Assembly (NCBI GenBank): GCA_038127535.1
Contig: JAYPHU010000010.1
Coordinates: 21,786 to 85,785, forward strand
DNA: 64,000 nucleotides
Direction of reading: 5' to 3'
Origin: Rhodospirillaceae bacterium
Lineage (GTDB): Bacteria > Pseudomonadota > Alphaproteobacteria > Rhodospirillales > UBA2165
Position numbers and translations under genes: made by a program. Of this stretch, positions 35,981 to 64,000 are shown piece after piece (the stretch's first letter is position 1; each line of letters begins with the position of its first letter). Under the pieces are notes generated by a model. It had not been told where the DNA came from and ran no database searches. It saw nothing but the letters and a program-made list of their open reading frames with translations.

Positions 35981-35985
35981 AATAT

Positions 35986-42878: not shown

Positions 42879-42884
42879 TTAATA

Positions 42885-44207: not shown

Positions 44208-44208
44208 T

Positions 44209-45267: not shown

Positions 45268-45283
45268 TTCCGATCCTTCCGCT

Positions 45284-46414: not shown

Positions 46415-47567
46415 CGATTAGGTCGTAGAATTGTTTTCTTTTCAGATCTTCTGCATTTGTTTGCCTGAGCGTGTCCGCGATGATATTCGACGCGTTCCCA
46501 ATAAGATAAGGAGAGCTCCCGTCACAATATTTTTCTCGGAATCCCAGATCGAGGCATTTCAATAAGCCATCGCGAATAGCTTCTCGCGAGGGATCGCAGT
46601 CAACCACCGAATTGGCCCGGAGCCTTCCTTTCTGCCGATCACCTATGTTGAGCGTGGGGGTTCCAAGGATCGGCGCTTCGAGCATTCCGCTCGATGAATT
46701 TCCAACTACCGCTGCTGATAGGGCAATAGCGCCGAGATAGAAGGTCTGACCAAGCGATTCAATAACCGCAACTCGTTCTGAATTCCTAGCAGAATAATCA
46801 CGAAAATAGTCGGAGATAAAATCGGACTTCGGATCGGCATTTACACCCGTAATGAGAACCATACGGTCGGGAAATTCGTCGATGGCCTTTGTGAGTTCGG
46901 TGACCGCCACCAAGTCGTCGATCCCGAGAGTGACAGGGTGATAGGTGACCAGGAAGAATTCTTCCCGGAGTTTTTGTCCTGCGCGTTTTGAAAGATCGCC
47001 CAGATTCGGAAGCTCGATACGGCCCAAAAAATCGATTCCTGGCGCACCCGATAAAATGACTCGCGCCGGGGCCTCTCCCAACTGGACAATCCTTTTTCGA
47101 TAAGCTTCCGCAGCCGCAAAATGTAGATGGGCCATTTTCGAAATTGCGTGACGAAACGATTCGTCCATTGCGCCTTCGGTAATTTCTCCGCCGTGGATGT
47201 GGGCGATTGGCACCCGCATTATCGTCGCCGCCATTGCCGCCGCCATCATCTCATAGCGGTCACCGAGAATGACCACGATCTCCGGCTTTAATCTGTCCAA
47301 CGACTCTGCCAGTTTGCCGACAGCCATGCCGACAGCATTCGCCACGGACAAATTTGTATCATCAAAAAGATCTATCTCCACTTTTTCGTGTATATCAAAC
47401 CCGTCAGCCTCGATCTCACGATAAGTAAGGCCAAACTTCTCCCTCAAATGTGCGCCGGTGACGATCCATTGCAGATCGGATTCGGGATCATCTTCGATAA
47501 TGCGCGCTAGCCAGCGTAAGTGGCCATATTCGGCCCGAGAGCCCGTTACGATACAAATAATTCGCAT
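46389..47567 (-). CDS. neuC: Hydrolysing NDP-N-acetylhexosamine 2-epimerase (NeuC/LegG-like)
   Basis: MRIICIVTGSRAEYG, VPIAHIHGGE, GNSSSG. Confidence 0.9.
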   Translation of the reverse strand: MRIICIVTGSRAEYGHLRWLARIIEDDPESDLQWIVTGAHLREKFGLTYREIEADGFDIHEKVEIDLFDDTNLSVANAVGMAVGKLAESLDRLKPEIVVILGDRYEMMAAAMAATIMRVPIAHIHGGEITEGAMDESFRHAISKMAHLHFAAAEAYRKRIVQLGEAPARVILSGAPGIDFLGRIELPNLGDLSKRAGQKLREEFFLVTYHPVTLGIDDLVAVTELTKAIDEFPDRMVLITGVNADPKSDFISDYFRDYSARNSERVAVIESLGQTFYLGAIALSAAVVGNSSSGMLEAPILGTPTLNIGDRQKGRLRANSVVDCDPSREAIRDGLLKCLDLGFREKYCDGSSPYLIGNASNIIADTLRQTNAEDLKRKQFYDLIDVQVHHVV

Positions 47568-49559: not shown

Positions 49560-50266
49560 GGATTTTCCGCTCCGGTCATGATCCGATGTATTTTACCGAC
49601 CTCTGCCGTGCTGTGCGCATTCGAGCCAAAGGACACTCTCGCTCCCGCACTAAGACACCATTCGAGAAACTTAGATGGTTTCGGGTGGTAGCGAGCATTG
49701 ATTTCGAATGCGATGTCCGTCTCCGCAGCAAGTTCAATCACTTCTTTTATCAGGTCGTCGGGCGGAGCAACCCCGAAACGTCGGTAGCTCATGCCAAACG
49801 GATGACCGAGCACATCAATCGGGCTATTGCGCAGAGCGGCGCACATCAATTCGAACTCCATATCGATCGCCAAAGCTGCTGATCTGTTTTTTGTTCCCGC
49901 ATCGGAATCCGTTTCGCCGGGGAACCGATGGACGCTGGCCATGACTTGATCACAACAAGCAAGAATATTATCGGTGGCATCCAACGCTCCGCTTTTATCC
50001 AGGATCTTGACTTCCACCCCGACATACGCGCGACAAGGGCTCGCAGGAAGGCTGCGAATTTCGTCCGCGAATTTTGGAAACCAACCACCACTGGAACCGC
50101 GCGCGTGCTCGCTGAACGCGATTGCTATCATCCCTGTGAGAACTGCTTGATCGTACATCTCGATCGACGAGTTTTCGCCGTCGGTCCAATTTGTATGCAT
50201 GTGAAGATCGACCGGCGGAATTTCGGCGTCATTCCACAACTCTTCAACGAATCGCGGCGGTTTCAT
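49547..50266 (-). CDS. PHP-family phosphoesterase (HisJ-like)
   Basis: VDLHMHTNWTDG (HxH), FSEHA, and later His residues of the PHP trinuclear site. Confidence 0.75.
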   Translation of the reverse strand: MKPPRFVEELWNDAEIPPVDLHMHTNWTDGENSSIEMYDQAVLTGMIAIAFSEHARGSSGGWFPKFADEIRSLPASPCRAYVGVEVKILDKSGALDATDNILACCDQVMASVHRFPGETDSDAGTKNRSAALAIDMEFELMCAALRNSPIDVLGHPFGMSYRRFGVAPPDDLIKEVIELAAETDIAFEINARYHPKPSKFLEWCLSAGARVSFGSNAHSTAEVGKIHRIMTGAENPWQL

Positions 50267-51423
50267 TGGATCAAACGTTCGAACAAGGGTACGAATACGT
50301 CGCCGGACAACCCGTATTTCGTTCTTCCGTCTGCGACGATCTCGCCGAAATAGGTCATCGCCGAAACAAAAATGACGGATACCTGTTTGTAGGACTCATC
50401 GCTGCAATGGCGGATCGGTTGAAGCGCCGCAGGCAGATATTTTCCTTTTTTGGAAATATCGCCATCAAAACATATGATGCGGTCCGAGTGGATATTAGTG
50501 GAATGCAAAAAGGAATTCAGGCCATTTGTAGCGCCGTGGAAACCAACCAGCTTGCCGCGTTCAAGGTGGCTAATTACCAGTTCTTGGCCGCGGGCCACAG
50601 AGTCTCTAAAAGCATTGCCAGCTTTCACCAGACTACCTGTTTCACGTATTTTATGTAGCTTTTGTGCGGGTAAATCGGTTTTCTCGGCAGCAATCCAAAG
50701 GCTGTCTTCGTGAGAGTCAAATGCGACCGGCTCCAAACCCGCAGACCGCAAAAGGTTCAGTGCAGATTCCCTATCGAAATAAGAAAGATGTTCATGCGAT
50801 ACCACGTTCAGATCACCGGACTCGAATTGTCGCTCCGTGTCCGGAAATGACAATATTGCTCGCCCCCCTTGCCGGAGCGACCTGTGGATCTCCGTCAGAA
50901 ACGAATAGGGATCGTCCACATGTTCAAGGCAATTGAACGATAGAACCCGGTCGAATGTCCTTTGCGAAAGCTGGCGCGAAGGAAAGTAATCGGTGATGAT
51001 TTCAATCTCCTGATCCGAGCACTTTCTCAATGCAGGATCGATGACGACCGGTTTTGCGGTTTCAAATTCGTGCGCTATCTCCGCTGACACAAGTCCGGAG
51101 CCTCCACCAATTTCCAGAACGCCGGCCCCCGCACAGAAATCACCATTCTCCAAGATAAATTTGATCTGCGTGCGGCCGAGGCGATTGGCCCAGTCAGACA
51201 ATCCCGGAGGTAGCGTAAAATGGACATAACTCTCGTTTCCGTATGCCTCAACGATTTCTCGGCGCGTTTCTATCGGCGTGGTTTGCCGAAAATAACCCAT
51301 AGAATCTTGGCCAAGACTGAGCGGCAACAGCGGCCCCATCCCTGGTGACTCCTGCGGGCCGTGCCAAACAGGCAGCGACGGAAAACGGATTTCAGCTCCA
51401 CAAATTTCCAAAAAGTCCTTCAT
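50263..51423 (-). CDS. SAM-dependent methyltransferase with C-methyltransferase-type C-terminal domain (TylCIII-like architecture)
   Basis: Motif I VLEIGGGSGLVS. C-terminal LVGFHGATNGLNSFL ... FDGDISKKGKYLP, resembling the sugar C-methyltransferase accessory domain. Confidence 0.7.
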   Translation of the reverse strand: MKDFLEICGAEIRFPSLPVWHGPQESPGMGPLLPLSLGQDSMGYFRQTTPIETRREIVEAYGNESYVHFTLPPGLSDWANRLGRTQIKFILENGDFCAGAGVLEIGGGSGLVSAEIAHEFETAKPVVIDPALRKCSDQEIEIITDYFPSRQLSQRTFDRVLSFNCLEHVDDPYSFLTEIHRSLRQGGRAILSFPDTERQFESGDLNVVSHEHLSYFDRESALNLLRSAGLEPVAFDSHEDSLWIAAEKTDLPAQKLHKIRETGSLVKAGNAFRDSVARGQELVISHLERGKLVGFHGATNGLNSFLHSTNIHSDRIICFDGDISKKGKYLPAALQPIRHCSDESYKQVSVIFVSAMTYFGEIVADGRTKYGLSGDVFVPLFERLIQ

Positions 51424-53480
51424 TCAGCGAATTCTTTTGAATTTGTGGGGCGTACTTTATAGAAGAAGAAATCCGCGCTAATTTCTTCGGACATTTTTCG
51501 AAGGGTGAACCCTTTTTTTTCCGAAGAGAACTGTTCCCGTTGGCGTTCAATTGCAGTGCGCTGCTGTTCCGGCAGAAAGAACTCGTAATCGTACCGGTCG
51601 CTCGAGCTAAGCTGCGCAGGCCGGCCTTTGTACCCGCTTTGTCTCCATGCCAGCAGATCGTAGTGAAAACTTTTACGCTTCACTTCAACGAGATCGTCCT
51701 GACCGGTTAATTCAATCCGCGTCTCGGCACCGAAGGATAGCACTTCATCGCAAAGAGCCAAAAATTCTTCGGCTTCATCCAAGCCATGATCCGCTGCCAA
51801 CTCCTTGGCAACATTTAGCAAAAGCGCATTGAAGGCCTCGTAATGCTGCAAAAGTATTTCGTAGGTGTATTGATAATTGAGCTTTCCGTATTGCCCGCTA
51901 CGCAACCGCTCGAGATTGTCGGGTATCTCCCAATAATCCGCCAGCGCTCCCATGGTCGGAAAGTTTTCCAGGTCGTGATCTGCCCGAAACCGTTCGTAAA
52001 GTCTCCCGATTTCTCCGTCGCTTGATTTAGCCGCCTCGGAAATTTTTAAAATAACATCGACGGGATGAATGCCCGCTTGATAGAAAAGATGCAAATAGTC
52101 GTAATACCATTTTCGACCCCACATCATTTGAATCAGAAAGTGAACAAAGCGGAAACCGCGCAACTCATCGACAGGCATCGAAGATGTTTCTAAAACAACC
52201 TCCTGTCCCTCGAAAATAGCCCTATTCTCGTAAACGCCGAACGCATTGTCGTGCAATCGCCAACCTGTCCGCAGGAAATACTTCTCCCGCGACTCTTCGG
52301 AATCCATTTCGGTTCCCGGAAGGAGGTGGAGGTTGTAGTTAAATACTTCGGCTCCGACATCGATCATGCGCCGGATGCTGTCCAAATGGGTTTCACTGGT
52401 TTCGTTAGGCAACCCAAGAATTAGCTCGGTAAATAAGGATGCTCCCGCACCTTCGGACTGCAACGCTTTAGTCATCTCGACCACATCTTCGAGTTTAAGA
52501 TTTCGCCTCTTGATGGCTTCGAGCACTTGGGGATTGAGCGATTGCATGGAAGCCCCCACTTCGCCGATATCGCCCAAGGCGCGGGCGACGCGCAATACCC
52601 GGTCGGGTCGGCTCTTATTCCATTGAGCGGAAACATGACTAGGATAGCCGTACCTTTTCTGACAATCGCGCAGATTTTCAGCAATCGATCGGTCGCGGTC
52701 CAAGATCGAAAAATTTGCGTCTGCGATAAATAGGTTCATCGATTTCTTGCAATTACGTCCCAGGTACTCAATTTCATCGAAAACCCGCTGATCGGAGAAC
52801 CGCGCAAGCTTTCCCGTACCAATACCCCATGCGCAAAACGTACACCGGTAGGGGCACGAGCGGTTTGTTTCCAGGATTGGCACGAACGGCTCATCAAAGA
52901 ATTCATCCATTGAGCCGTTGAGGTAAGGCGACGGAATTTCGTCGAGATCCCGGATCACGTCCAATTCAGAGCCAATATGAATTCGATTATGACCCTGGAG
53001 ATCATTAATCAATGCGCCGTCCAACACATCCGATACGAAACGCTTGCGGTCGCCATTTAGCGAAAGGAAGCGTTCCACCAAGGAAGCAAATCCGCGTTCG
53101 CCTTGATTGACGACGTAAGCGTCACAAGCCGACGAAGCGGAAAAAAATTTTCGCGCCGCCTCATCATTAGCGTTGGCGCTGGTAAAATTCGGCCCACCAC
53201 CGACGCACAAAGCGTTCGGAACTTCCTGACGAGTGATGTCAAAAACCAACGCATTGAGATTTGCGTTCCAAACGTAATGGGACAGCCCAACGACATCGGG
53301 TTTTTCGCGCTTGATGGCGTCGATCATCTGTTGGGGACGCTTAAACAGACGAAATTCAAGGTCTTCGGCGACCATTTTGTCCGTGTAGGCAGCGATGTAG
53401 CCAACATTGAGCGGAAAGGTCCAAAGACTGACCTTCTCCCAATCATGCACCAGATCAGCGAGAAAAATCTTAAGGCTCAT
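51420..53480 (-). CDS. B12-binding (class B) radical SAM protein, 686 aa
   Basis: N-terminal B12-binding-like region (VVGLSHYVWN ... VGGGPNF). ETNRSCPYRCTFCAWG (CxxxCxxC). First gene after the 334-nt leader. Confidence 0.85.
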   Translation of the reverse strand: MSLKIFLADLVHDWEKVSLWTFPLNVGYIAAYTDKMVAEDLEFRLFKRPQQMIDAIKREKPDVVGLSHYVWNANLNALVFDITRQEVPNALCVGGGPNFTSANANDEAARKFFSASSACDAYVVNQGERGFASLVERFLSLNGDRKRFVSDVLDGALINDLQGHNRIHIGSELDVIRDLDEIPSPYLNGSMDEFFDEPFVPILETNRSCPYRCTFCAWGIGTGKLARFSDQRVFDEIEYLGRNCKKSMNLFIADANFSILDRDRSIAENLRDCQKRYGYPSHVSAQWNKSRPDRVLRVARALGDIGEVGASMQSLNPQVLEAIKRRNLKLEDVVEMTKALQSEGAGASLFTELILGLPNETSETHLDSIRRMIDVGAEVFNYNLHLLPGTEMDSEESREKYFLRTGWRLHDNAFGVYENRAIFEGQEVVLETSSMPVDELRGFRFVHFLIQMMWGRKWYYDYLHLFYQAGIHPVDVILKISEAAKSSDGEIGRLYERFRADHDLENFPTMGALADYWEIPDNLERLRSGQYGKLNYQYTYEILLQHYEAFNALLLNVAKELAADHGLDEAEEFLALCDEVLSFGAETRIELTGQDDLVEVKRKSFHYDLLAWRQSGYKGRPAQLSSSDRYDYEFFLPEQQRTAIERQREQFSSEKKGFTLRKMSEEISADFFFYKVRPTNSKEFAE

Positions 53481-53628
53481 TCGAAATCGCGGCTAAGACG
53501 GCTGGAACAATCAATGACAACAAGTTTGGAAAAATCGTCGCACTCGGCAGGGGCAAAAATCGCTTTATTCAAGCCCCGCGAAATGGTGCAGCTCAATATT
53601 ATCGTTCGGAAACCCAATCGGATTTACC

Positions 53629-53640
53629 CAAGCTACCGCA
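53629..53640 (-). promoter_or_regulatory. ops-like element (candidate RfaH recruitment/pause site)
   Basis: The minus (sense, non-template) strand reads TGCGGTAGCTTG. The ops consensus as I recall it is GGCGGTAGnnTG. Only position 1 differs among the fixed positions. It lies in a non-coding leader about 150 nt upstream of the 53480 start codon. An RfaH-like gene is encoded at 57130..57633. Confidence 0.4.
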
Positions 53641-53660
53641 GGCCGGGTGAAAAGACACGA

Positions 53661-53693
53661 CCAAGCGTTCATCACCTGAACAGTAACGCTTGG
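53661..53693 (-). terminator. Perfect 9-bp inverted repeat hairpin (candidate terminator/attenuator)
   Basis: CCAAGCGTT, then 15 nt, then AACGCTTGG. On the minus strand it is followed by TCGTGTCTTTTC and preceded by a T7 run. The loop is long and the U-tract is interrupted. Confidence 0.3.
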
Positions 53694-53743
53694 CGCAAAA
53701 AAAGCAAGGAAAATTAAGCCCAAAACGCCATATATTTAAAACC

Positions 53744-53764
53744 GCCACTATATTTCTTAGTGGC
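53744..53764 (-). terminator. Short hairpin just downstream of the aminotransferase gene (weak terminator candidate)
   Basis: GCCACTA, then 7 nt, then TAGTGGC. On the minus strand it is followed by GGTTTTAAATATA. Confidence 0.2.
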
Positions 53765-53814
53765 CGATGTTGTTGCTATGTTCACGGCGCCTTACCGCAA
53801 AAATTTAGCCAAAC

Positions 53815-54972
53815 TTATTGGTCAGCTAAACGGGGGCTGGAAGGCAAACAAATCAACTGGTTATACAACAATTCAGTCATTCTCAGATCAGCCCGAGGTG
53901 CATCCTTGTAAGCGTCCAACAAGTGAATTGGACGCCACAAGGGGCGGCTCATGAAACCGGCATCATTAAGTTCCTGCAATAATATGTCTCGAAAAGACGC
54001 CGATTCTGAACTGAGACGGACCGTGTTCAGCCAATAATTACTGAGGCATTCCGGTGGCTCGGATATAAATACTGCTGAACTAAGGCCATCAAACGCTTGA
54101 CGATAGTACTGAGCAAGCAGGCGTTTTCGCGCCACGAAATCGCTCAGATTCTCCAGCTGACCGCAACCGAGCGCCGCGTTCAAGTTCGGCATTCGGTAGT
54201 TATATCCTATTCCGTCGTGGATGAATTCCCAGCGATGGGCAATTTTCGCATTTGTCGTGAGGTGCCGGGCCCGTTCCGCTATACGATCATTCGACGTTAC
54301 TATTGCGCCACCGCCACCTGTAGTGACAATTTTGTTTCCGTTGAAACTGAATACCGAGACGAGCCCATCATTCCCAGTGTGGCGCCCATGATAATAAGAC
54401 CCAAGAGATTCTGTTGCATCTTCGATCAAGATGATTCCGTAACGCCTGCAGACCTCGGCAAGCGCATCCAGTTGCGCCGGATGGCCGAATACATGAACGC
54501 AAATAAGCGCCTTGATCGATCGGCCCGTCTTTGAGTTAACCAGTTTACCGTTTGAATCCCTGTCATAATTACTTAAATGCTGATCAAGCTTAACCGGATC
54601 GATTCCGAACGTGTATTGCTCGGCATCAACAAAATGAGGCACGGCGCCGGCGTGGGCAACCGCGTTTGCGGTAGCAACGAATGTCAAAGATGGAATGACG
54701 ACCTCGTCACCCCGCCCGACACCGGACGTCGTTAACGCGGCATGAAGTCCAGCTGTTCCCGAGGAAACAGCAATCGCATGTTTTGTTCCGATGATCTCGC
54801 ACAGCATGCCTTCAAAGCGATTTACATATGAACCGGCAGTAGACACCCATTCCGTATCCAAACACTCCTTCACATAGGCCCATTCGTTTCCGGTAATCTC
54901 GGGCGCATGCAATGGCGCCCCGTCCTTTACGACAGAACGTACGGCTGCGACAATCCGTTCGACTTCTTTCAT
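53815..54972 (-). CDS. DegT/DnrJ/EryC1/StrS-family sugar aminotransferase (LegC/PglE-like)
   Basis: PLP-Lys region VSVFSFNGNKIVTTGGGGAI. HAPEITGNEWAYVKECLD at the N-terminus. Confidence 0.9.
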   Translation of the reverse strand: MKEVERIVAAVRSVVKDGAPLHAPEITGNEWAYVKECLDTEWVSTAGSYVNRFEGMLCEIIGTKHAIAVSSGTAGLHAALTTSGVGRGDEVVIPSLTFVATANAVAHAGAVPHFVDAEQYTFGIDPVKLDQHLSNYDRDSNGKLVNSKTGRSIKALICVHVFGHPAQLDALAEVCRRYGIILIEDATESLGSYYHGRHTGNDGLVSVFSFNGNKIVTTGGGGAIVTSNDRIAERARHLTTNAKIAHRWEFIHDGIGYNYRMPNLNAALGCGQLENLSDFVARKRLLAQYYRQAFDGLSSAVFISEPPECLSNYWLNTVRLSSESASFRDILLQELNDAGFMSRPLWRPIHLLDAYKDAPRADLRMTELLYNQLICLPSSPRLADQ

Positions 54973-55811
54973 TTCACTGCTTCAACGTACAGCGATTTGT
55001 CAGGATAAGTGGTATCCAATCCCAACATTCTTTTTATTTCGAAAAAATCGCCCGTCGTCAGCCAGCCGCCCTCACCCTTAAGTTCGTTAAACCGGCTGGC
55101 CTGCGGAGACGAACGATAGACATTCGTGAATCCGGCATCCTGCAACATTTGTTCGAGTTTTTGATAATTAAACCAGTTGATGTGGTAACCGCCTTTCTCT
55201 TGTTGCACGGCACGAGATGCGTCGAGCGTGTAGCGATCGGCAAAATCTTCGGGCGAGAGTTGAGAGAATTCCCGCCGTATTTCCTCCGCCGACACCGAAT
55301 CAAGCATGGCTGTCGCGATCTGTTCGACGACCGCCTGTTCTATTGTCAAATCTCGCGCGGACGCAGCTAAAAAATAGGATAAATCGTTGCGGTCCGCAGC
55401 ATCCCGAATCAAGTCGTAGTCCGGCATATTTAGGCGCACTGCGCCACCTGGCCGAAGACAGCGATAGATTTCCATCAAAATGCTTGGGCAGTTTTCCTGA
55501 GGTATATGTTCCAAGGTATGAGACGAGTAAAAAAAATCGACACTATTGTCGTCAAATGGAAAGTGGCTTAGCGCCATCATATCGACATCGATATCGATGT
55601 AACGGCGCTGGAATGGGTAATAAGAGGAAACGTGATCCAATACTTTCCAATGTGGCCGAAAAAATAATCCTCCACCGATATTTACCATAAGACGTGCGCG
55701 TTCTCGTGATGGAAACAGCATCGCGTGTATTCGTTTGCGGACGAGAAGAAGTCGAGTGAGAATCTGGAATTTGGCGATCAGGAATAATCGTTGCGCTAAT
55801 GTGTTCATCAC
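54969..55811 (-). CDS. Class I SAM-dependent methyltransferase
   Basis: MVNIGGG ... FFYSSHTLEHIP ... IYRCLRPGGAVRL (Methyltransf_11-like blocks). GTG at 55811 or ATG at 55808. Confidence 0.75.
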   Translation of the reverse strand: MMNTLAQRLFLIAKFQILTRLLLVRKRIHAMLFPSRERARLMVNIGGGLFFRPHWKVLDHVSSYYPFQRRYIDIDVDMMALSHFPFDDNSVDFFYSSHTLEHIPQENCPSILMEIYRCLRPGGAVRLNMPDYDLIRDAADRNDLSYFLAASARDLTIEQAVVEQIATAMLDSVSAEEIRREFSQLSPEDFADRYTLDASRAVQQEKGGYHINWFNYQKLEQMLQDAGFTNVYRSSPQASRFNELKGEGGWLTTGDFFEIKRMLGLDTTYPDKSLYVEAVK

Positions 55812-56848
55812 TGATTCGAGTCGAGTGGATAATCGATATCATAATTGCCGAAGAACCGGGGTGGAGATTGAATGTCGCGAAACAGGCCTTGATCCATTGC
55901 CTTGATCAACTCCCCAACTCCATCTTCAACGCTAACGGCCGGAACGAAACCTATCTTTTCCCGGATTTTTGAAAAGTCGACTCGATAGTTCCGCGGATCA
56001 GAACCTTTCTCCTGGAAACAAACTTTCCCACGTTGCAGCCGGTCGGTGATCGTATCCACGATCATCCGTTTCGTAAAATTATTAATGTCGCCACCGGCAT
56101 TGAAAACGTCAAAGGCAACATCATCAACGTCAGCTTCAAGAACCATTTGCACAGCACGGGCAAAATCTCGGACGTGACAATAAGGCCTCCAAGTATCCGG
56201 ATCATAAACCAGAAGCTCCCTCCCCAGGTAAAGTTCGCGGGTAAACTCACTCACCGTTAGATCAAATCGCATGCGGGGGCTCAAACCGAAGGCTGTTGCG
56301 AAACGCAAAATCGTCGGAATGAAACCTGAATCTCGCGGAAGCTGCAAAATCTTTCGTTCGATATTTACTTTTGCGACGGCATACGCGGACAACGGATTTA
56401 ACTCGAAATCTTCGCTAGCAAGTTCATCCGTTTCGATCAGACCATAATTGGAACAGGTAGAAACATATATTACCCGGCCCAGCCTACGGTCGGACAGTAG
56501 ATCGAACGTTTGATCATAGGCTCGGTCATTAATCCACTCGGACTGTTCCGGAAATTTTCGCGTTATTGGATCACCTACCAAACCGGCCAAAAATACGATA
56601 TCGGTTATGCCATCCAGAGCGGCGATCATTTGATCCGAATTTGCAATATCTCCATAGCAAAATTCAAACCCTGGCTGGTTATAAAAAATTGGAACGACGG
56701 TCTGATTGTCGTAAATAAGCCGGTCAAACATGCGTACTTGGTAACCGGCTCGAATCAGGTGGTCGGCCATTATTGTTCCAATGTAACCGGCGCCTCCGAC
56801 AAGAAGCAATTTTCGTTCGCAACAAGTTATGCTTGAATTATTGGACAA
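55808..56848 (-). CDS. NAD-dependent NDP-sugar epimerase/dehydratase (extended SDR)
   Basis: LLLVGGAGYIGT and YAVAKVNIE (YxxxK). TTG start preceded by GAGAAAGG. Confidence 0.85.
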   Translation of the reverse strand: MSNNSSITCCERKLLLVGGAGYIGTIMADHLIRAGYQVRMFDRLIYDNQTVVPIFYNQPGFEFCYGDIANSDQMIAALDGITDIVFLAGLVGDPITRKFPEQSEWINDRAYDQTFDLLSDRRLGRVIYVSTCSNYGLIETDELASEDFELNPLSAYAVAKVNIERKILQLPRDSGFIPTILRFATAFGLSPRMRFDLTVSEFTRELYLGRELLVYDPDTWRPYCHVRDFARAVQMVLEADVDDVAFDVFNAGGDINNFTKRMIVDTITDRLQRGKVCFQEKGSDPRNYRVDFSKIREKIGFVPAVSVEDGVGELIKAMDQGLFRDIQSPPRFFGNYDIDYPLDSNQ

Positions 56849-57129
56849 AAAATTTGGCCTTTCTCAAATTTTAGGACTTAATCTAGCGTACGCGCTTCTT
56901 GCGCAAGCCCGCCATGCTGGTTATTGGTTCAAAGTTACTCGCTCCCGACGATCCGAATGCCACGGCACTCTGCCCTTCCTGATTAGCGGCAAGCACCCAA
57001 CCGACTCCAGTCGAAAGAAATGCGTAATTCGGCCCCTCTAGAATATCGCAGCGATGATTTTACAGGAAAGATCCCCCGCGCTCTGAGTTACCAAGAAATC
57101 GGGCCACCACGCAGGTCATCGATTAGTTG

Positions 57130-57633
57130 TCATAGACAAGCGACGACGTTTTCGCTGTGTGTCGTAACTCGAGTTTGGCGGCCTAAAATATTCAACAATA
57201 TAACAACGCGGTCTTCGTCACATTCGCTTTCAAAAACTCCAAATTGGTCAGCCAATGAGCCATTGAGAATTCGCACTTGGTCACCTGGGCTCCGTGGCAA
57301 AAAGCGATCGAGGCGGATGACACCGGAACTGTCCTCATGTAGTTTAATATCATCGATAAGGTCTTCCGGAATTGGAGCGGGCCCATGGTTATGACAAACG
57401 ATGTGACTTACTCCGAATGTAGAATTGATGGCTCTCCAATTGGAACCAAAAATATCGATTTTTACAAATAGGTATCGGGGAAACAAAGGCGCTTTAACTT
57501 TCTCAACACGCCGGGCATGGCGGCGCATTTTGAAATAACGAGGCAGGTAGACCTCAATATTTTGGCTCATCAAATTGTAGTTCGCCTTCGTCTCACTGCG
57601 AGGTTTTGTATGAACGGCATACCAATTCTTCAT
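57130..57633 (-). CDS. rfaH: RfaH-like NusG paralog (operon-specific transcription antiterminator)
   Basis: MKNWYAVHTKPRSE, APLFPRYLFVKID, FGVSHIVCHNHGPAPIPEDLI. KOW-like PGDQVRILNGSLADQFGVFE ... RVVILLNILGRQTRV. It is collinear by eye with E. coli RfaH. Confidence 0.8.
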   Translation of the reverse strand: MKNWYAVHTKPRSETKANYNLMSQNIEVYLPRYFKMRRHARRVEKVKAPLFPRYLFVKIDIFGSNWRAINSTFGVSHIVCHNHGPAPIPEDLIDDIKLHEDSSGVIRLDRFLPRSPGDQVRILNGSLADQFGVFESECDEDRVVILLNILGRQTRVTTHSENVVACL

Positions 57634-57635
57634 TA

Positions 57636-58385
57636 TTATACCTCGTTATCCGGATCGGATTGCCAGACTGTACGAAGAAGCTTCGGGGCAAATATACGAT
57701 CTCCCGGAAACTTATCCGCGATCTCATCGCATATGGAATCGAGGTCGCCAAAATCCGTGACGATAACGGCATCAATGGATGATGGCTCTGGAAATGTCCG
57801 AACAATCGGGGTTCCACAAAAATCTGAAGAACGAGTGGCGTCATCGTAAATTGCCACTATAGTTACGTCGCTCTCGCGCGCGACCATCAGCGCAATTTCC
57901 GTCAAGTCGGAAAGACCGTGAAGCGACACTCGATGATGTCCCTTTTGCTCGCAACTACCAAATATTTCACTAAGTTCCTTCCGTGCAATACGAAAAAATT
58001 GGAAGCCTTGGCTAAGATATTCCGCAGTCAAGCGGCTTTTTTCGGAGAATCCCCGTGGAGTGAGGTAGTAGGCATAGCGGTTTGCAGGAACCTGCTGAAC
58101 TTTAATCCAGCCCTTCTTAATACAACGTTTTACATAGGCATTAGCGAGACCGAGAGCGATTCCGAGTTCCTTTGCAACTGAACGCTGGCTCACACTAGCG
58201 TCATTAGCAACGGCATTAAGAATGCCCAATGTAATCGCGAGACTGCCATCGGATTTGCCCCTATCGGCATAATCCCGATTAACGTTTTCACTTCCTTCCT
58301 TAAGAGTGTTCATAAAATGAACGTAGCAGGGCCAGCCTGGATCGTCAACTAGATAAAGTTCACCGATCGCGCTGAAATATCTCAC
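57636..58385 (-). CDS. EPS-associated MarR-like winged-helix regulator with a C-terminal Rossmann-like extension
   Basis: wHTH region SQRSVAKELGIALGLANAYVKRCIKKGWIKVQQVPANRYAYYLTPRGFSEK. About 110 extra C-terminal residues (RVSLHGLSDLTEIALMVARESDVTIVAIYDD ... IDAVIVTD). The track start is GTG at 58385, and an ATG at 58313 (MNTLKEG...) is an alternative. Confidence 0.7.
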   Translation of the reverse strand: MRYFSAIGELYLVDDPGWPCYVHFMNTLKEGSENVNRDYADRGKSDGSLAITLGILNAVANDASVSQRSVAKELGIALGLANAYVKRCIKKGWIKVQQVPANRYAYYLTPRGFSEKSRLTAEYLSQGFQFFRIARKELSEIFGSCEQKGHHRVSLHGLSDLTEIALMVARESDVTIVAIYDDATRSSDFCGTPIVRTFPEPSSIDAVIVTDFGDLDSICDEIADKFPGDRIFAPKLLRTVWQSDPDNEV

Positions 58386-58425
58386 TTCCCGCTACAACAG
58401 CTCGAATACGCCTCGTTGAAATTTA

Positions 58426-58455
58426 GTTATAGGCTAATATTGGAAAAATTTTCAA
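58426..58455 (-). promoter_or_regulatory. Candidate sigma70-type promoter for the regulator/rfaH-like unit
   Basis: Minus strand: TTGAAA (58455-58450), an 18-nt spacer, then TATAAC (58431-58426), roughly 40 nt upstream of the GTG at 58385. This is a visual match only. Confidence 0.3.
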
Positions 58456-58462
58456 TTTTCCA
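58441..58462. promoter_or_regulatory. Inverted repeat overlapping the candidate -35 (possible operator)
   Basis: TGGAAAA, then 8 nt, then TTTTCCA. It sits in the AT-rich part of the 438-nt intergenic region, directly upstream of the MarR-like gene. Confidence 0.3.
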
Positions 58463-58823
58463 CTCTTCCTTTTACAAGCGCTTCAATTAAAATCGCCACA
58501 GTTCTAGTTGCTTGGACGGTTGACGAGATCGTTGAGCTCATCGTTTGTAACGGCACCAAAGCGTTGAATCATGAGGCTGGCAAATTCGCCGTGCGCTAAT
58601 CCATCTCAAAATCTCAGCTATAGTCCATGTATCACGCTTTATCGGGTGGACGGCTCCCGCCGCACGAGATCTTGGGTCTCAGGTCAGTGCCAAAACGGCC
58701 TTTTGAGTGATTCTCGGGGAAATTCGACTCACCCCGCAACAATGTTAACGAAGAAAACAAGAGCGGTGTAGAACGACTAAAGAAAATTTGAAGTTCTTAA
58801 TTTTTTGAACGAAACGCGGACTT

Positions 58824-59573
58824 TCAAATCGAACGCCGGAACAGCCTTAGCTTCATCAGATAAAATAAGTTTCGTACCATGAATTTAATAAAGGAATAGA
58901 CAGAGTAGGCCCATTTGGATTCTCCGGCGATACGCTCCTGGAATATGACATCAATGGCGACAATCTCCTTTCCCGACGCGACAGCCTTATCATATGCGTA
59001 AACATCCAACTCATATGTATCGGGCGGACGTCTGAATTCTTCTAAAAAACTGCGATGAAACAATTTCGGTTGTGCGTTGATCTCCTCTAAATGATACCCA
59101 AGTACTAGGTCGGAAAAGAAAGTATGCATCATGGGAAAAATTTTCATTTTTCCACGGTCATTAGTCCTACGCCCCTTACCAAAACACGATTTGGGAGACG
59201 GATGGGCCATGACAGCATCGAACAACCGAAACGGATCCTCCGGCGGGCATTGAAAGTCTGCGTGCGACCATGCCAGATATTCCCCGTCCGCCGCCTTTAG
59301 TCCAGCCATAATTCCGTTACCGTAACCTATGTTGTCGTCGATCCGGATTATACGGAATTGAAAACTCGGATCTTTTTTTTGCTCCGCCTCAAGCATTTCC
59401 AGCGTTCCGTCCGTAGAGCCGTTATCAACGATAATCAACTCACAATTCTCACGATCCGCCATCACCCTGCGATATTCGCCGATCACGCGGGGCAACGATT
59501 CCACTTCGTTGAATGCTGGCAGTACGATAGAAAGCGTCCTCGGTCCGGTCTGTGGCGTTGGCCTTTCTGTCAT
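58824..59573 (-). CDS. GT2 glycosyltransferase, polyprenyl-phosphate sugar synthase type (DPM1/ArnC-like)
   Basis: LSIVLPAFNEVESL, IIVDNGSTDGT, and a C-terminal amphipathic/hydrophobic tail. The ATG at 59573 forms an ATGA overlap with the upstream stop. The track start at 59597 is also ATG. Confidence 0.85.
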   Translation of the reverse strand: MTERPTPQTGPRTLSIVLPAFNEVESLPRVIGEYRRVMADRENCELIIVDNGSTDGTLEMLEAEQKKDPSFQFRIIRIDDNIGYGNGIMAGLKAADGEYLAWSHADFQCPPEDPFRLFDAVMAHPSPKSCFGKGRRTNDRGKMKIFPMMHTFFSDLVLGYHLEEINAQPKLFHRSFLEEFRRPPDTYELDVYAYDKAVASGKEIVAIDVIFQERIAGESKWAYSVYSFIKFMVRNLFYLMKLRLFRRSI

Positions 59574-61120
59574 AAGGGCACGCCATCCCGTTCCCATTTA
59601 AAAACTCCCTTATGCCCCAGCCAGAAGAAAAACTCGTTTAATTCCTCTTCCGTACCTAAATGCACGTAATCGTCAACCGGATAGGCCGCTATATGCCCGT
59701 CCGTCTCGACCCAATGCTTGAAAATATCGTCGACAAGTACCTCTTGTCCGTCTGGTTGAGGAACGTCGCTTAGACTGGAAAACATCTTACCGTCACCGAT
59801 CCAGAAAAACCCCGTTAGTCCCGGACACGTATCGTCTGGGCGAGATTTGACATGAACCGCCGTAATCCGGTCGCCATCGATCGAGACATGGGTGTGATTG
59901 GGTGCTCGTTTCGACTGAGTTAATGACGGTGAAAAAGTAAAAACAACGGCCTCCGGAAGCGTTCTTTCAATAAAATCGGAAAATGCATCGGCATCAAACA
60001 ATCCATAGGCGTCACACGCCGTTAAAAAGAAATCTTGCCGATTGATCAGGGCTTGCCGTGATTCCCATAACGTTTCGAATTGCGACGACGTTTGATGAGA
60101 GATTAGAAAACACTGCGACTCGGCCAGAGGCTTCGACTGACTATCAATTTCCTTCGCAATTTTTTCTGTCGTCAAAATAACGCGTTCGCGCGCCGGAAAA
60201 AAATCGGAAACGAACTCGTACATTGGCCTACCGGCCACGTGAATGAGCGCCTTGGGTTTTTCCGATATTCCGCTCACTCGCGTCCCCAGCCCCGCCATGC
60301 AAACAACGTTTCCTTGGCGCTCTGTTACAGGTAGCCGGCCACCGCGGGACGCTTCGAGTTGTCTCATAACCCGCGACCAGTGCTCGAAATCGGCAAGCTG
60401 TTCGGGAACACCCCAATGAATAAAAAAATCTACCGGCTGCAGAGCCACCGTCAGCCGGTCTGCGACCAATCGATTGAAAGCCAGAGATGGGAAGAACTCT
60501 CCTGCAACCCGCTCATTTTCTTCGATCATATCGGAGATGGCCTTCATCATGATGTGCCCGCGTTTGAAATAAAATGCGCCGACGGATAACGGCTCATCCA
60601 TCCAATCGTCCGTAAACGGCTGCTTTTCCCTGATTTCAGCCATAAGTCCCGGAGCAGAGGTTTCCGGCCTGCAAAATGCGGAAAAGGAATTATCGATCAA
60701 ATGCGGATGAAACCCTTCATGGGTAAACACCATTCCATCCGCATCCAAATTCGACCGGACGTCTTCAAAATTCCATGTCCAAAATATGTCGCAATAAGCG
60801 ACGAAGAACGCTTCTTCGAGCGGCAGGTCGTTGCTCGCCTGATAGATTGAATAAGCCGGGCCGTCTTTGTGCGGTGAAACATAGTGGATTTGGCAATTTA
60901 AGGTGTCGCGCAAAAAGCGTTCCTGTTCCGGCCTTAAAAGATCTGGAGCGGTAATGACAATTCGATGCACATCCTCTGGAAAAGCATCGACCACATATTC
61001 GACCATCGGCCGACCTTGGATCGGAATGAACGGCTTATATTCTTTGAAGCCCCCCTCGCGAAAACGGGATCCCCGGCCAACCATCGGTATAATGAGATTA
61101 AGGGCGGTGGGCGACGGCAT
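59570..61120 (-). CDS. Tandem nucleotidyltransferase-fold protein (two NTP-transferase-like halves)
   Basis: First half: LIIPMVGRGSRFREGGFKEYKPFIPIQGRPMVEY. Second half: VVCMAGLGTRVSGISEKPKALIHVAGRPMYEF. Each half has the GxGxR ... KP ... G+PM pattern. Confidence 0.7.
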   Translation of the reverse strand: MPSPTALNLIIPMVGRGSRFREGGFKEYKPFIPIQGRPMVEYVVDAFPEDVHRIVITAPDLLRPEQERFLRDTLNCQIHYVSPHKDGPAYSIYQASNDLPLEEAFFVAYCDIFWTWNFEDVRSNLDADGMVFTHEGFHPHLIDNSFSAFCRPETSAPGLMAEIREKQPFTDDWMDEPLSVGAFYFKRGHIMMKAISDMIEENERVAGEFFPSLAFNRLVADRLTVALQPVDFFIHWGVPEQLADFEHWSRVMRQLEASRGGRLPVTERQGNVVCMAGLGTRVSGISEKPKALIHVAGRPMYEFVSDFFPARERVILTTEKIAKEIDSQSKPLAESQCFLISHQTSSQFETLWESRQALINRQDFFLTACDAYGLFDADAFSDFIERTLPEAVVFTFSPSLTQSKRAPNHTHVSIDGDRITAVHVKSRPDDTCPGLTGFFWIGDGKMFSSLSDVPQPDGQEVLVDDIFKHWVETDGHIAAYPVDDYVHLGTEEELNEFFFWLGHKGVFKWERDGVPL

Positions 61121-64000
61121 TAGTATGATCGTTTTTGAAGTATGTCCCTGACAGCGCGGTACTTGATCCGGATTTCCTCATTGTCGCTGCCCCTTATAAT
61201 CGACCAGCCGGCGAAAATCTGGCCGCCGGCGTTACAACACAAGCGCAAGGATTCAAGCGTCAGCCCGCCGTCAACCTCTATCAAGAAGGGGCGCCCATCC
61301 CGCCGCGCGTACCAATTGAGTGAGGAAATACGGTTAATGGTAGATTGGTCGAAGATCTGGCCGCCGTACCCGATCGGCACCCCCATCACAACGCACCAAT
61401 CAATACCCGCATCACACAACGTCTGCCAAAACTGGTCGTCAATATGTTGCGACGTCTCGACAATGACCCCGGCGCGCACATCGCGGGACTGGATCAATTG
61501 AATTGCGTTATGAAATTGCCGCTTATTTGCGAAGGCGCGCTCGTGAATGGCTATTCCCGAACAACCAGCATCGATATATTCCTCGAGCGGCGATTTGCCC
61601 GGACTTTGGGAAACATGCGGCTCCTCCATCATGAGATGAGCATGCAACGTCACGCCCGCGAAGGTTTTACGCAGGTATTTCGCCTTCTCCAATCCATTGA
61701 TTTCCCGGCTGATAAACCGGCCATCGCCAGCATCGATATGAAAATTCCGAACACCTTCCTCCCATAGGATTTTAGCGATTTCCTCGAAAGATGGACCGAA
61801 CGGCACCTCTATCAACGAAGCCGAGAATGCATAAGCTGCCTCGGGGTCGCTACGATCCTGAAACGATACTTTCGGTTTGTTCGCTTTCCAACTCAACAAA
61901 GCATCGACGATAGTATCGACATGATTGGGCTCATATCGATAAAACATGTACCGAAAATAGTTGACGTCAATTGGCGTCAAGCGGGGCGAGCGGATTGTAT
62001 CGATAATCGACCTTGCGTGCGCCTTTAACGATTGCAGCAATTGTTTCGATTCGGATACCGGCATCAAGTCCATCCGATCTCGAATTTCGGGCAACATGTA
62101 TTTGGCCCCGGCCGGACCACTCTCGACTTCATCGCGAAGTGTATTCGGCAATCCTTGAACAAGTGTCCTTAAAAAATCGCCGGCAACGTTGACTTTGTGA
62201 CAACCCTTTGTCGCACGCGCTAGAATATCCGGATGAGAATTTGTCGTGCCGTGTAAAACAGCCGAGACGAAATTAAAGCTCTTGATCCTCGAGCCCCAAT
62301 CGACCGCCGCTTCGACAGTAATGTCGCCCGTATCAAAGCTGTGGTGTGTCGTTCCCAAATTCCCGATAATGAGTGTCGGACGTGCATTCACCGCGCCTAC
62401 GCCGCGCGAACGGGCCGCTTCACGGTAAATTTTGGCAAAAGCGAACATTTCGTCGCCGCTCGGAATAAACGTCGAACTATCCGAACCGACGTAATTCAGT
62501 TCGCCAGCACAAACTTCATGGTCAAAAATATAAAGGGATTCTTGCTCGTCGAGCAGATCGGTCGCGTAATTGGCAATTTTACCGAACGCCGCTTCCATCT
62601 CGTCCGAAGACCTGTCTTTAGCGTCGAATAGCGCCGAACCATCGAGCACGAAGTGGGTCACAGCCCCATTGTTGACCGCATCGTGAAGAAACCGCTTTGC
62701 CCGGCCTTTAGGCCGATCCTGGCGAATATCCACGTGATCCAACCCGATACCGAATAGCGGCGGAATCGCCCCTTCCAACAAAATTTTGTCTCGAGCCGCC
62801 GTGAGGACCGCTTTGGACAAATCCAACGCGCCGCCCGAAGGTTTAAGATATCCGTGAACCTCGGTTCCATCCTCATCTGTCTCGCGCTGTCCGAGCGCAT
62901 TCAAGGATCCTTGCAGAACGATCGGCGTCCCCTTCTCTGAAGCCGCGCTGAGATAAGCGTTGCAATCCAGGGACTGGGACCGAATATCATATACATTGGC
63001 GCCAAGAATTGCCGATGCCTCATTTCTCAATGCCAGCCAAAGATAAACCTCGCCGAGAATGGTCGGCGATATCTCAACAAAATTTTCCAACGGAATCTGT
63101 TCCCGTGCCCCATGCGGCACATCGTCCCAGAGTTTATTCACCGGAAGACTTAGGTTCGGAAAATTCTTAAGTATGAATTGGGTCGCCCGCTTTCTAACGA
63201 GGCGCGAGGAATGCATTAGCATCGAAGAAAGTTGGCTGACCATCCGCACCCATTGAGCGCCTCCGCTGTCGATGCTCAAACAAAACAGATGCCCGTCCAA
63301 TATCCTGAATTCGGAGCACGATTTAGATACGAATTGCTCCAACTCAGCCCGCTCAGAATCCAGTATCCGGTCATACCTATTCTGATCCGCAGCAGTTTCT
63401 TCTGCGTCCCCGATACGCTCTGACCAATCCTGGCGGACGCTATCGAACGCGGCACGTAGATCAGCGTTACTGGACCACAGAACAACCAAATAATTTCCGG
63501 CGGAGAACGCGTTGGCACCGCAACATTTAACAATCTCCTTGAAAAACTTTAATTCGGAAAATTTTGAAAATCGATGTATCCAAACACTAGGACCACCGAA
63601 TAGACGCTCCAGAGCCCGAGAGGCGGTAATGTTTTCGTCCTCACGCCCGGTGTAAACCGGATCGAATTCGAACCCCTTGAGAAATCCGGGCTGCATAAAT
63701 GGCGTCGGTGTCAACAGAACAAGCTGATCGCTCTGTGCAAGAGCTCTGTTCGAATGAGGAGTCTGGTCGGTAATACTGAATTGCGCAGACGATGCCAGCG
63801 TGCCGAGTTCGCGATCGAAGCGGAACCGCAAATACCCTGTTCGCGAGGCTGTCTGAAGCAGCAAGCAATCATGGAGAACGTCGATCAGAAGATAGACGCA
63901 CTGGCCATCACAACTGACTTTTACGCCAATTGAAGCCGGGAGATTACGGTGAAAAATGTTGTGAAAGGCATTGGTATGGCCAAGCTCAACAGAACATTTA
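61120..64000 (-). CDS. Multidomain protein: unknown N-terminal region, then a class II (Zn) ketose-bisphosphate aldolase-like domain, then a ribulose-phosphate 3-epimerase-like domain; 5' end probably beyond the right edge
   Basis: Aldolase-like blocks: PIVLQGSLNA, GIGLDHV, THFVLDGS, HEVCAGELNYVG, IIGNLGTTHH, AVLHGTTNS, HKVNVAGD. RPE-like blocks: NFHIDAGDGRF, LHAHLMMEEP, VMGVPIGYGGQ, IEVDGG. The track start at 63864 is TTG, and the same frame has no stop up to nt 64000 (...KCSVELGHTNAFHNIFHRNLPASIGVKVSCDGQCVYLLIDVLHDC-LLLQTAS...). Confidence 0.75.
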   Translation of the reverse strand, partial: KCSVELGHTNAFHNIFHRNLPASIGVKVSCDGQCVYLLIDVLHDCLLLQTASRTGYLRFRFDRELGTLASSAQFSITDQTPHSNRALAQSDQLVLLTPTPFMQPGFLKGFEFDPVYTGREDENITASRALERLFGGPSVWIHRFSKFSELKFFKEIVKCCGANAFSAGNYLVVLWSSNADLRAAFDSVRQDWSERIGDAEETAADQNRYDRILDSERAELEQFVSKSCSEFRILDGHLFCLSIDSGGAQWVRMVSQLSSMLMHSSRLVRKRATQFILKNFPNLSLPVNKLWDDVPHGAREQIPLENFVEISPTILGEVYLWLALRNEASAILGANVYDIRSQSLDCNAYLSAASEKGTPIVLQGSLNALGQRETDEDGTEVHGYLKPSGGALDLSKAVLTAARDKILLEGAIPPLFGIGLDHVDIRQDRPKGRAKRFLHDAVNNGAVTHFVLDGSALFDAKDRSSDEMEAAFGKIANYATDLLDEQESLYIFDHEVCAGELNYVGSDSSTFIPSGDEMFAFAKIYREAARSRGVGAVNARPTLIIGNLGTTHHSFDTGDITVEAAVDWGSRIKSFNFVSAVLHGTTNSHPDILARATKGCHKVNVAGDFLRTLVQGLPNTLRDEVESGPAGAKYMLPEIRDRMDLMPVSESKQLLQSLKAHARSIIDTIRSPRLTPIDVNYFRYMFYRYEPNHVDTIVDALLSWKANKPKVSFQDRSDPEAAYAFSASLIEVPFGPSFEEIAKILWEEGVRNFHIDAGDGRFISREINGLEKAKYLRKTFAGVTLHAHLMMEEPHVSQSPGKSPLEEYIDAGCSGIAIHERAFANKRQFHNAIQLIQSRDVRAGVIVETSQHIDDQFWQTLCDAGIDWCVVMGVPIGYGGQIFDQSTINRISSLNWYARRDGRPFLIEVDGGLTLESLRLCCNAGGQIFAGWSIIRGSDNEEIRIKYRAVRDILQKRSY

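Follow-up and report, generated by a model that had tools for sequence, protein, structure and literature searches.

Among the closest described counterparts of the locus reported here are the three-component systems for extracytoplasmic glycosylation: GtrA/GtrB/GtrC, ArnC/ArnT, and the set formed by a polyprenyl-phosphoribose synthase, a MATE protein and GT136 (Kelly et al. 2024, PMC11127046). The CDP-6-D-fructose/CDP-6-D-glucitol pathway encoded in the capsule locus of Campylobacter jejuni HS:5 includes a nucleotidyltransferase whose substrate is a ketose phosphate (PMC10918830). Ketose donors in bacterial glycans lack assigned genes, as for NDP-D-xylulofuranose of Escherichia coli O95/O97 (PMC7685785). 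Our locus lies at the right-hand end of a 64,000-nt stretch of Rhodospirillaceae bacterium DNA (assembly GCA_038127535.1, contig JAYPHU010000010.1, positions 21,786 to 85,785), which we call the window throughout. It centres on a giant gene whose product joins a predicted kinase, a phosphatase-like domain, a class II aldolase-like barrel and a barrel like ribulose-phosphate 3-epimerase (RPE) in one chain, and which travels in a cassette with genes for a tandem nucleotidyltransferase (NTase), a GT2 glycosyltransferase and a small protein.

Like the three-component systems, the cassette has a GT2 with a small soluble domain, and GtrA flippases and GT-C proteins accompany it in relatives. It differs from them in that its donor would not be a standard UDP-sugar or phosphoribosyl pyrophosphate, and in that it brings along a sugar-phosphate synthesis module of its own together with the tandem NTase and the GDPD/PLC-like protein. 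The C. jejuni HS:5 pathway shares with our proposal an NTase that accepts a ketose phosphate with a non-anomeric phosphate; it consists, however, of a single-domain cytidylyltransferase and a reductase, with no kinase/aldolase/epimerase fusion, ArnC-like GT2 or GDPD-like partner. A looser analogy may be drawn with the NDP-heptose route (GmhA, HldE, GmhB, HldE/HddC), where tailoring of a sugar phosphate, a kinase, a phosphatase-type module and an NTase likewise precede glycosyl transfer. The components of that route are unrelated in sequence to those of the cassette, whose kinase is of the P-loop PRK/uridine-kinase type and which adds aldolase and epimerase chemistry; the phosphatase slot would be taken by the IMPase-like domain of the giant protein or, in a related type of cluster described below, by an HAD enzyme.

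In frame -1 of the minus strand, 959 codons run without a stop from the window edge at 63999 to a TAA at 61122..61120. A first interpretation made from the window's letters, hereafter the sequence-only reading, had described a giant aldolase-like/RPE-like fusion whose real start lay past the window, and both points held when we recovered the missing N-terminus by looking up the complete neighbouring NTase protein in public assemblies. Logan assembly SRR26337524_48275 (locus L032) is 100% identical to window positions 49570..64000 over 14,431 nt and reaches 7,120 nt further; in it the giant gene runs 1,013 nt beyond nt 64000, adding 338 aa. A search for the N-terminus of the window protein among JGI metagenome contigs gave no match. 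The complete gene, L032 6108-10001, has 1,297 codons, with a TTG as the gene caller's start. The TTG at 63864 in the list of open reading frames is not the start, because the 45 codons preceding it already encode family-conserved residues (ELGHTNAFHNIFHRNLP) and full-length homologues align from the first codon in the window, which matches their residue ~350. The frame in the window is the larger part of a 1,297-aa protein in which a predicted kinase, an IMPase/FBPase-like domain, a class II aldolase-like barrel and an RPE-like barrel follow one another in that order, as they do in homologues. The parts that fall within the window are as follows.

61120..64000, minus strand: giant gene, C-terminal 959 codons and stop; the first 338 aa lie beyond the window
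63415..63999, minus strand: core of the middle domain, predicted IMPase/FBPase-like fold with degenerate metal motifs (fragment aa 1-195)
63043..63414, minus strand: connector, mostly helical according to the structural model (fragment aa 196-319)
61900..63042, minus strand: class II (metal-dependent) ketose-phosphate aldolase-like TIM barrel (fragment aa 320-700)
61165..61833, minus strand: RPE-like TIM barrel, PF00834 (fragment aa 723-945)

Of the two barrels, the RPE-like one is the more readily recognised. PF00834 matches fragment residues 727-929 with 75.7 bits (E 4e-21, cut-off 21.1) over profile positions 4-191 of 198, and RPEs of solved structure in the PDB match the domain at E 1.5e-15. 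His34, Asp36, His67 and Asp176 of 2FLI align with H1092, D1094, H1126 and D1248 (full-length numbering), all four of which are invariant in 51 family members; they include the Asp pair whose conservation the sequence-only reading had wanted checked. Compared with RPE and D-allulose-6-phosphate 3-epimerase (2FLI, 3CT7), homology is clear, and the domain retains the His/Asp/His/Asp set together with the phosphate loops GxGGQ and DGG; it differs in being fused, in having Gly in place of Met38 of 2FLI, the first 'cushion' Met, and in a last phosphate loop that reads G-W-S. Its scores fall far below the equivalog cut-offs for RPE (TIGR01163, 77 against 212.6) and AlsE (NF007266, 61 against 271), and the Pelagibacter locus L003 encodes a separate 219-aa RPE besides the giant protein. 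Both observations indicate, at the level of sequence, that the domain is a specialised, divergent paralogue and not the housekeeping enzyme.

The aldolase-like barrel has diverged much further. We modelled fragment residues 300-720 with AlphaFold (pLDDT 91, pTM 0.90) and compared the model with the PDB using Foldseek. The top 48 matches were all class II aldolases, specific for fructose bisphosphate, tagatose bisphosphate or sulfofructose phosphate or of the YdjI type, with E down to 2e-11; the top matches, at E 2e-11 to 1e-9, have 12-17% identity and target-normalised TM-scores of 0.6-0.74. An hhalign comparison with E. coli GatY gave E 1.3e-4 and paired GLDH with HLDH, GTTHH with GTAHG, VLHGTT with VLHGAS and KVNVAGD with KINVATE; GatY alone scored, the comparisons with GatZ and FbaA not being significant. 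All six of the motif pairs by which the sequence-only reading had matched this region to aldolases by eye fall on the expected barrel strands in the model and the GatY alignment.

Eleven residues of the barrel (D759, H760, H787, D791, D831, E833, H890, H891, H921, K940 and N942, full-length numbering) are invariant in the family; D759, H760, H890, H891, H921 and N942 are so in 51 sequences. The Asp-His pair D759/H760 falls on strand beta3, H890 on beta6, H921 on beta7 and N942 on beta8. The roles of the Asp, the three His ligands and the beta8 Asn are well established for FbaA and AgaY. Whether the Zn/His ligands persist had been a question for the earlier aldolase assignment, and the Asp-His, His, His, Asn series is conserved. 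The domain resembles FbaA, GatY/KbaY, YdjI and SqiA (PF01116) in its TIM-barrel fold and in the strand-by-strand arrangement of catalytic residues, including a beta1 Asn and a beta2 Ser; in comparison with GatY, the barrel is ~100 aa longer, has extra helices and forms part of a fusion protein of 1,297 aa. When PDB sequences were searched with a profile of the whole family, RPEs and kinases matched but no aldolase and no IMPase, so the aldolase assignment and that of the phosphatase-like domain rest on fold prediction. As judged from model and alignments, the domain is a highly divergent barrel that keeps the predicted fold and the catalytic and metal-binding residue set of class II aldolases. 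It could be a C4 epimerase instead of a net aldolase.

For the region upstream of the barrels, the sequence-only reading had recognised no motif; it missed a predicted phosphatase-like fold and a probable kinase domain. An AlphaFold model of the homologous region of P0002, in which this segment is complete (pLDDT 85), has nine top Foldseek matches in the PDB that are all IMPase, FBPase or SuhB structures, the best at E 2.3e-4. In a manual register, the family patterns 'L.HTNA..NVY.R.LP' and 'GGVWIHRF' occupy the positions of the IMPase motifs DPxDG[ST]xNF...P and WD. Comparisons of the middle domain by hhalign with E. coli SuhB (E 0.1, in an agreeing register) and Fbp were not significant. The connector that follows has invariant columns at D565, D590, R621, R624 and K625 (P0002 numbering) with an R..RK(R) patch, which in the window protein reads RLVRKRA at fragment residues 266-272.

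The N-terminal domain, off the window, carries the P-loop VIGIDGPTAAGKT (GIDGPTAAGKT) in the L032 translation. Against the PF00485 cut-off of 22.0, the full-length window protein scores 14.4 bits, P0002 a marginal 22.3, and the homologues P0121, P0135 and P0085 score 25-27; the best NCBIfam matches are PRK09270, a nucleoside/nucleotide kinase family, and uridine kinase. From these sequence matches the N-terminus is predicted to be a P-loop kinase of the PRK/uridine-kinase family.

The fused protein occurs in ~55 clusters of a 90%-identity protein collection. An exhaustive phmmer search of 1.84 billion sequences returned ~30 full-length representatives, some of which form a subfamily that keeps the domain order at 25-30% identity. 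Full-length homologues of 1,265-1,330 aa align end to end at 33-55% identity. In a scan of representative genomes, a set that does not contain the window's own genome, the best match was 50% identical. We collected 26 loci from at least seven lineages, among them SAR11, Prochlorococcus, Magnetococcus, Bdellovibrio, Silvanigrellales and Gemmatimonadaceae; SAR11 and Prochlorococcus rank among the most abundant bacteria of the sea. Viral contigs searched for the family contained no member. In databases, members are labelled 'class II fructose-bisphosphate aldolase', 'ribulose-phosphate 3-epimerase' or 'hypothetical'.

The sequence-only reading overlooked the conserved partners of the giant gene: the NTase, the GT2 and the small protein are found together with it in essentially all 26 loci. 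Gene order varies among loci, save that the NTase gene comes directly after the giant gene wherever the locus extends far enough to include both. Two of the partners lie in the window.

59570..61120, minus strand: tandem (duplicated) sugar-phosphate nucleotidyltransferase, 516 aa; PF12804 in two stretches
58824..59597, minus strand: GT2 glycosyltransferase of the ArnC/DPMS/GtrB type, 257 aa; PF00535, E 6e-24

The three genes overlap in turn, the TAA of the giant gene overlapping the ATG of the NTase gene (TAATG) and the GT2 gene overlapping the NTase gene by 28 nt. Both NTase halves match models of sugar-1-phosphate NTases, and the protein has a weak PDB match to 4EVW. Each half carries a G-x-G-x-R...K signature that does not vary among 22 homologues. 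The GT2 has ArnC as its best NCBIfam match (E 1.4e-15), and its best PDB matches are ArnC (three entries), the Pyrococcus furiosus DPMS and GtrB; its W-x-H-x-D-x-Q motif is invariant in 20 homologues. It also aligns over its full length, with 35% identity and E 9e-45, to the GT2 half of a GtrA-GT2 fusion in locus L037. We predict that it is a polyprenyl-phosphate glycosyltransferase of the ArnC/DPMS/GtrB type.

The small protein belongs to a family of ~200 aa and is encoded directly upstream of the giant gene in L032, where it has 208 aa. H6, R7, E24, D26, H38 and D39 are invariant (an HR...ExD...HD pattern), hhalign aligns it collinearly with E. coli UgpQ in a weak match (E 1.1e-3), and in one NCBI record a member bears the name PI-PLC/GDPD family protein. 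In L012 (9961..12006), from a metagenome-assembled genome labelled Pacearchaeota, NTase and small protein form one open frame of 685 aa. The archaeal labels of L012 and of the Methanosarcinales metagenome-assembled genome L020 may reflect binning error or horizontal transfer.

Polytopic membrane proteins adjoin the cassette in most loci. By BLAST and hidden Markov model (HMM) searches they are not one family, those of L011 and L023 alone being recognisable, as PMT_2 GT-C proteins; in the Prochlorococcus locus L030 a GtrA gene lies next to the cassette. Another pairing of kinase and phosphatase occurs near the cassette of Magnetococcus sp. PR-3 (L002), where a gene just downstream (16892..18676) encodes 594 aa in which an APH/EcKL-type kinase is joined to an Inositol_P (IMPase) domain, and an HAD hydrolase is encoded two genes upstream of the giant gene.

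The small-protein family extends to at least 6,581 clusters, and four of its members that we examined (loci L034 to L037) belong to a related type of gene cluster that has no giant protein. These clusters keep the small protein (51-67% identity), the GT2 (35-38%) and, where the contig allows, the tandem NTase (27-28%, E 1e-54 to 1e-56). In place of the giant protein they encode a PRK-type kinase, an HAD phosphatase and, in three of the four loci, an Aldolase_II protein (PF00596); the L037 contig ends before that position. HAD and Aldolase_II genes are almost always absent from loci with the giant gene. The Aldolase_II protein, which with the kinase and the HAD phosphatase replaces the giant protein, is a non-homologous metal-dependent enzyme. 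The partners are kept and the supply enzymes exchanged, from which it follows that kinase, phosphatase-fold and metal-aldolase/epimerase functions come either fused or as separate proteins.

GtrA flippases are also found in these unfused clusters, next to the cluster in L035 and fused to the GT2 in L037, and GT87-type GT-C enzymes in L034 and L037. NTase, GT2 and small protein thus appear, from sequence comparison, to form a conserved core that would work with lipid-carrier machinery. The PRK kinase of the unfused clusters (GIAGDSGSGKDT...GDDYHLWDR) is fused to a polytopic membrane domain in all four loci.

L034 8585..10699: PRK-type kinase fused to membrane domain
L035 8603..10651: PRK-type kinase fused to membrane domain
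L036 8603..10657: PRK-type kinase fused to membrane domain
L037 2904..4982: PRK-type kinase fused to membrane domain

We considered whether these 682-704-aa proteins carry the middle domain of the giant protein and rejected the idea, the extra part being an N-terminal membrane domain. That domain, of ~370 aa, has weak matches to ALG3/MptA (GT-C-like), an odd pairing for a soluble-sugar kinase.

In the literature we searched, neither the four-domain fusion, nor its pair of Pfam domains, nor the tandem NTase/GT2/GDPD-like core, nor the exchange of fused for unfused supply enzymes was found described. The domains come from known superfamilies; what is new, with respect to that literature, is the four-domain fusion, the gene set around it and the swap. 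The locus is a candidate for a sugar-activation pathway, and the fused and unfused modules offer a natural comparison.

With moderate confidence, we propose that the giant protein supplies a rare sugar phosphate and that the rest of the cassette activates the sugar and loads it onto polyprenyl phosphate for the decoration of a surface glycan. The observations behind this proposal are the domain architecture, the conservation of catalytic residues, the cassette itself and the association of relatives with GtrA and GT-C proteins. The giant enzyme would start from common phosphates of trioses, pentoses or hexoses and produce one particular sugar phosphate of an unusual kind, probably that of a ketose. 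Its RPE-like barrel would invert C3 of a 2-ketose phosphate by enediolate chemistry, its aldolase-like barrel would stabilise the enediolate of a ketose or of dihydroxyacetone phosphate (DHAP) and could so form or cleave the bond between C3 and C4 or else invert C4, and the kinase, possibly together with the phosphatase-like domain, would reposition the phosphate. The translationally coupled tandem NTase would then turn the sugar phosphate into a nucleotide derivative, from which the ArnC/DPMS-like GT2 would transfer the sugar to a polyprenyl phosphate carrier; a flippase and then a GT-C enzyme would add it to the surface glycan. The GDPD/PLC-like small protein would contribute some phosphodiester step. 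We favour the polyprenyl-phosphate route because the GT2 is nearest to ArnC, DPMS and GtrB, because a GtrA-GT2 fusion exists and because GtrA and GT-C genes adjoin the cassette in relatives. The substrates, the order of the reactions, the activity of the phosphatase-like domain and the identity of the sugar are what we infer.

Several observations weigh against this proposal. The first group concerns the domain assignments. PF01116 scores 22.9 bits in the window protein (21.8 in the full-length protein), below its cut-off of 25.5, and the match covers profile positions 173-265, the C-terminal third; of the two domain models by which the sequence-only reading was to be judged, then, PF00834 was above its cut-off and PF01116 was not. 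Two homologues do pass the PF01116 cut-off, P0002 with 26.1 bits and P0135 with 38.1 bits over profile positions 29-267. No canonical aldolase was reached in the exhaustive phmmer search, which marks the domain as very divergent. The fold match of the middle domain is modest (TM-score 0.29 query-normalised, 0.46 target-normalised), and the domain contains neither of the canonical metal-binding motifs DPxDG[ST] and WD, nor any conserved Asp at those positions. With these motifs absent and the fold match modest, the domain, which the model suggests is phosphatase-derived, may be a non-catalytic scaffold. For the small protein we found no Pfam and no PDB profile match, and its GDPD assignment is weak.

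The second group concerns the pathway. Neither in the window nor in L032 does a GtrA or a recognisable GT-C gene stand next to the cassette. Members of the PRK/uridine-kinase family place phosphate on primary hydroxyls, and the products of aldolases and RPEs bear their phosphate at C1 or at the terminal carbon. These enzymes would therefore not yield an anomeric C2 phosphate, which leaves the origin of a true glycosyl donor unexplained. To our knowledge, the family has neither a characterised member nor a known substrate.

A narrower version of the proposal, which we put forward only tentatively, is that a rare ketose phosphate of the xylulose, psicose or sorbose type is built de novo from central triose or pentose phosphates, through an aldol reaction combined with epimerisation at C3, and that the ketose is nucleotide-activated and loaded onto polyprenyl phosphate. 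The sequence-only reading had suggested an unusual ketose or ulosonate precursor; the ketose phosphate remains plausible in view of the unfused clusters with Aldolase_II, PRK and HAD proteins, but the ulosonate does not, for reasons given below with the nonulosonic-acid genes. In a variant of this scheme, the kinase could make a bisphosphate, each half of the NTase could take one of the phosphates, and the GDPD-like protein could trim one diester. If the ketose version is true, this would be the first described route that activates a ketose and loads it onto polyprenyl phosphate, and it would explain ketofuranose side branches on glycans. The glycan modification would then be common in SAR11, in Prochlorococcus and, in its unfused form, in thousands of other environmental bacteria.

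The main rival to the polyprenyl-phosphate proposal, and one that we regard as unlikely, is that the cassette makes a phosphodiester-linked substituent: a ketose phosphate, or the phosphate of a polyol derived from it, made by the giant enzyme would be converted by the IspD/MobA-like NTase into an NDP-linked open-chain sugar, comparable with CDP-6-D-fructose or CDP-ribitol, which the GDPD/PLC-like protein would transfer, cyclise or trim, the GT2 adding a separate sugar. The NTase matches PF12804 and, weakly, IspD, and the non-anomeric phosphates expected on aldolase and RPE products would fit activation of this kind. The formation of CDP-6-D-fructose from CTP and fructose-6-phosphate is a precedent (PMC10918830), and the fourth conserved protein is phosphodiesterase-like and joined to the NTase in L012. 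However, no phosphotransferase of the TagF, LicD or CDP-alcohol-transferase type is conserved in the cassette, both NTase halves resemble sugar-1-phosphate NTases, and the presence of GtrA and GT-C neighbours, like the GtrA-GT2 fusion, speaks for a glycosyl donor carried on a lipid.

We think it improbable that the product is instead a soluble small molecule, such as a compatible-solute glycoside or a cofactor-like compound, made by a GT2 that acts like glucosyl-3-phosphoglycerate synthase (GpgS) on a sugar-phosphate acceptor supplied by the giant enzyme and finished by the phosphatase-like domain. The GT2 does match models and structures of GpgS, and it has no transmembrane segments, but its matches to GpgS are weaker, ArnC and DPMS being clearly better. 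The cassette lies outside any obvious glycan operon in L002, L003 and L009, and its hosts include oligotrophic marine bacteria, in which such solutes matter; against this stand its position inside glycan islands in the window, L001 and L010, the GtrA, GT-C, GT87 and PMT_2 neighbours and the GtrA-GT2 fusion.

There is very little to commend a role in catabolism or salvage of a rare sugar, which would be phosphorylated, epimerised and cleaved to DHAP and an aldehyde, or in a 'metabolon' of the Calvin cycle or pentose-phosphate pathway. The four folds are those of PRK, FBPase, FBP aldolase and RPE, all enzyme types of the Calvin cycle, and the protein is present in Prochlorococcus, but it is found also in heterotrophs such as SAR11 and Bdellovibrio. 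Triads of kinase, epimerase and aldolase are typical of sugar catabolism; here, however, the triad is constantly coupled to an anabolic nucleotidyltransferase and a glycosyltransferase, and no transporter or catabolic regulator is conserved nearby. All domains score far under the housekeeping equivalog cut-offs, the metal motifs of FBPase are lost, and L003 has its housekeeping RPE separately.

That the frame is an artefact of assembly or sequencing, a frameshift having merged separate aldolase and epimerase genes, would be suggested by nothing beyond the exceptional length of the frame and the weakness of the start codon given for it within the window, and is refuted by the independent assembly identical over 14.4 kb and by the same architecture in more than 50 clusters (~55) and more than 25 loci of different phyla, down to 25-30% identity.

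Downstream of the cassette in the window, and before a long glycan operon, come two genes at 57130..58385, one for a MarR-EPS regulator of 249 aa (TIGR04176-like) and one for a 167-aa NusG paralogue. This pair probably provides operon-specific antitermination and regulation and marks the 5' end of the operon. The sequence-only reading had placed the giant gene inside that operon; the regulator pair lies between them, and the gene belongs to a four-gene cassette of its own, which is also found in genomes and places without nonulosonate genes. The operon, in which an aminotransferase is encoded as well, has the following features.

45284..46414: NeuB
46389..47567: UDP-GlcNAc 2-epimerase
44209..45267: CBS-NTP_transferase
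41476..42878: HisF/HisH-like proteins
39505..40548: Maf/MptE-like protein
39505..47567, also 35207..36028 and 13102..13875: nonulosonic-acid pathway region, including three CTP_transf_3 CMP-sugar synthetases

By its gene content the operon encodes a nonulosonic-acid pathway of the legionaminic or pseudaminic type, which suggests glycosylation of flagellin or surface proteins. The orphan 'KdsB-like' enzymes without a KdsA, which the sequence-only reading had linked to the giant gene, are CTP_transf_3 proteins of the CMP-nonulosonate synthetase type. The NeuB-type pathway in the same operon explains them, and we rejected a ulosonate (Kdo-like) reading of the cassette, since NeuB accounts for the CMP-sugar synthetases.

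Other genes in and around the glycan island may bear on its chemistry. Three B12-binding radical SAM enzymes (686, 499 and 610 aa) are encoded at window positions 51420..53480 and 37975..39474 and at L032 2602..4434. They neighbour several class I methyltransferases in or beside the island, with similar neighbours at the cassettes of L001 and L010; radical SAM enzymes and methyltransferases together may serve the C-methylation of sugars. The glycan region also has, at 24099..28015, genes for an APS kinase (182 aa), an NTP_transf_3 protein of 268 aa and a protein of 453 aa that contains a cupin; they hint at sulfation or some other step that uses activated sulfate. Upstream of the cassette, ~6.7 kb past the right edge of the window, a DDE_Tnp_IS1595 transposase fragment (L032 142..372) suggests that the glycan island ends there or is mobile. 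Nearly all large open reading frames of the window are on its minus strand, and all 2-kb bins but one (36001..38000) have a negative GC skew. In essence the window is a single co-directional glycan super-operon or a set of operons.

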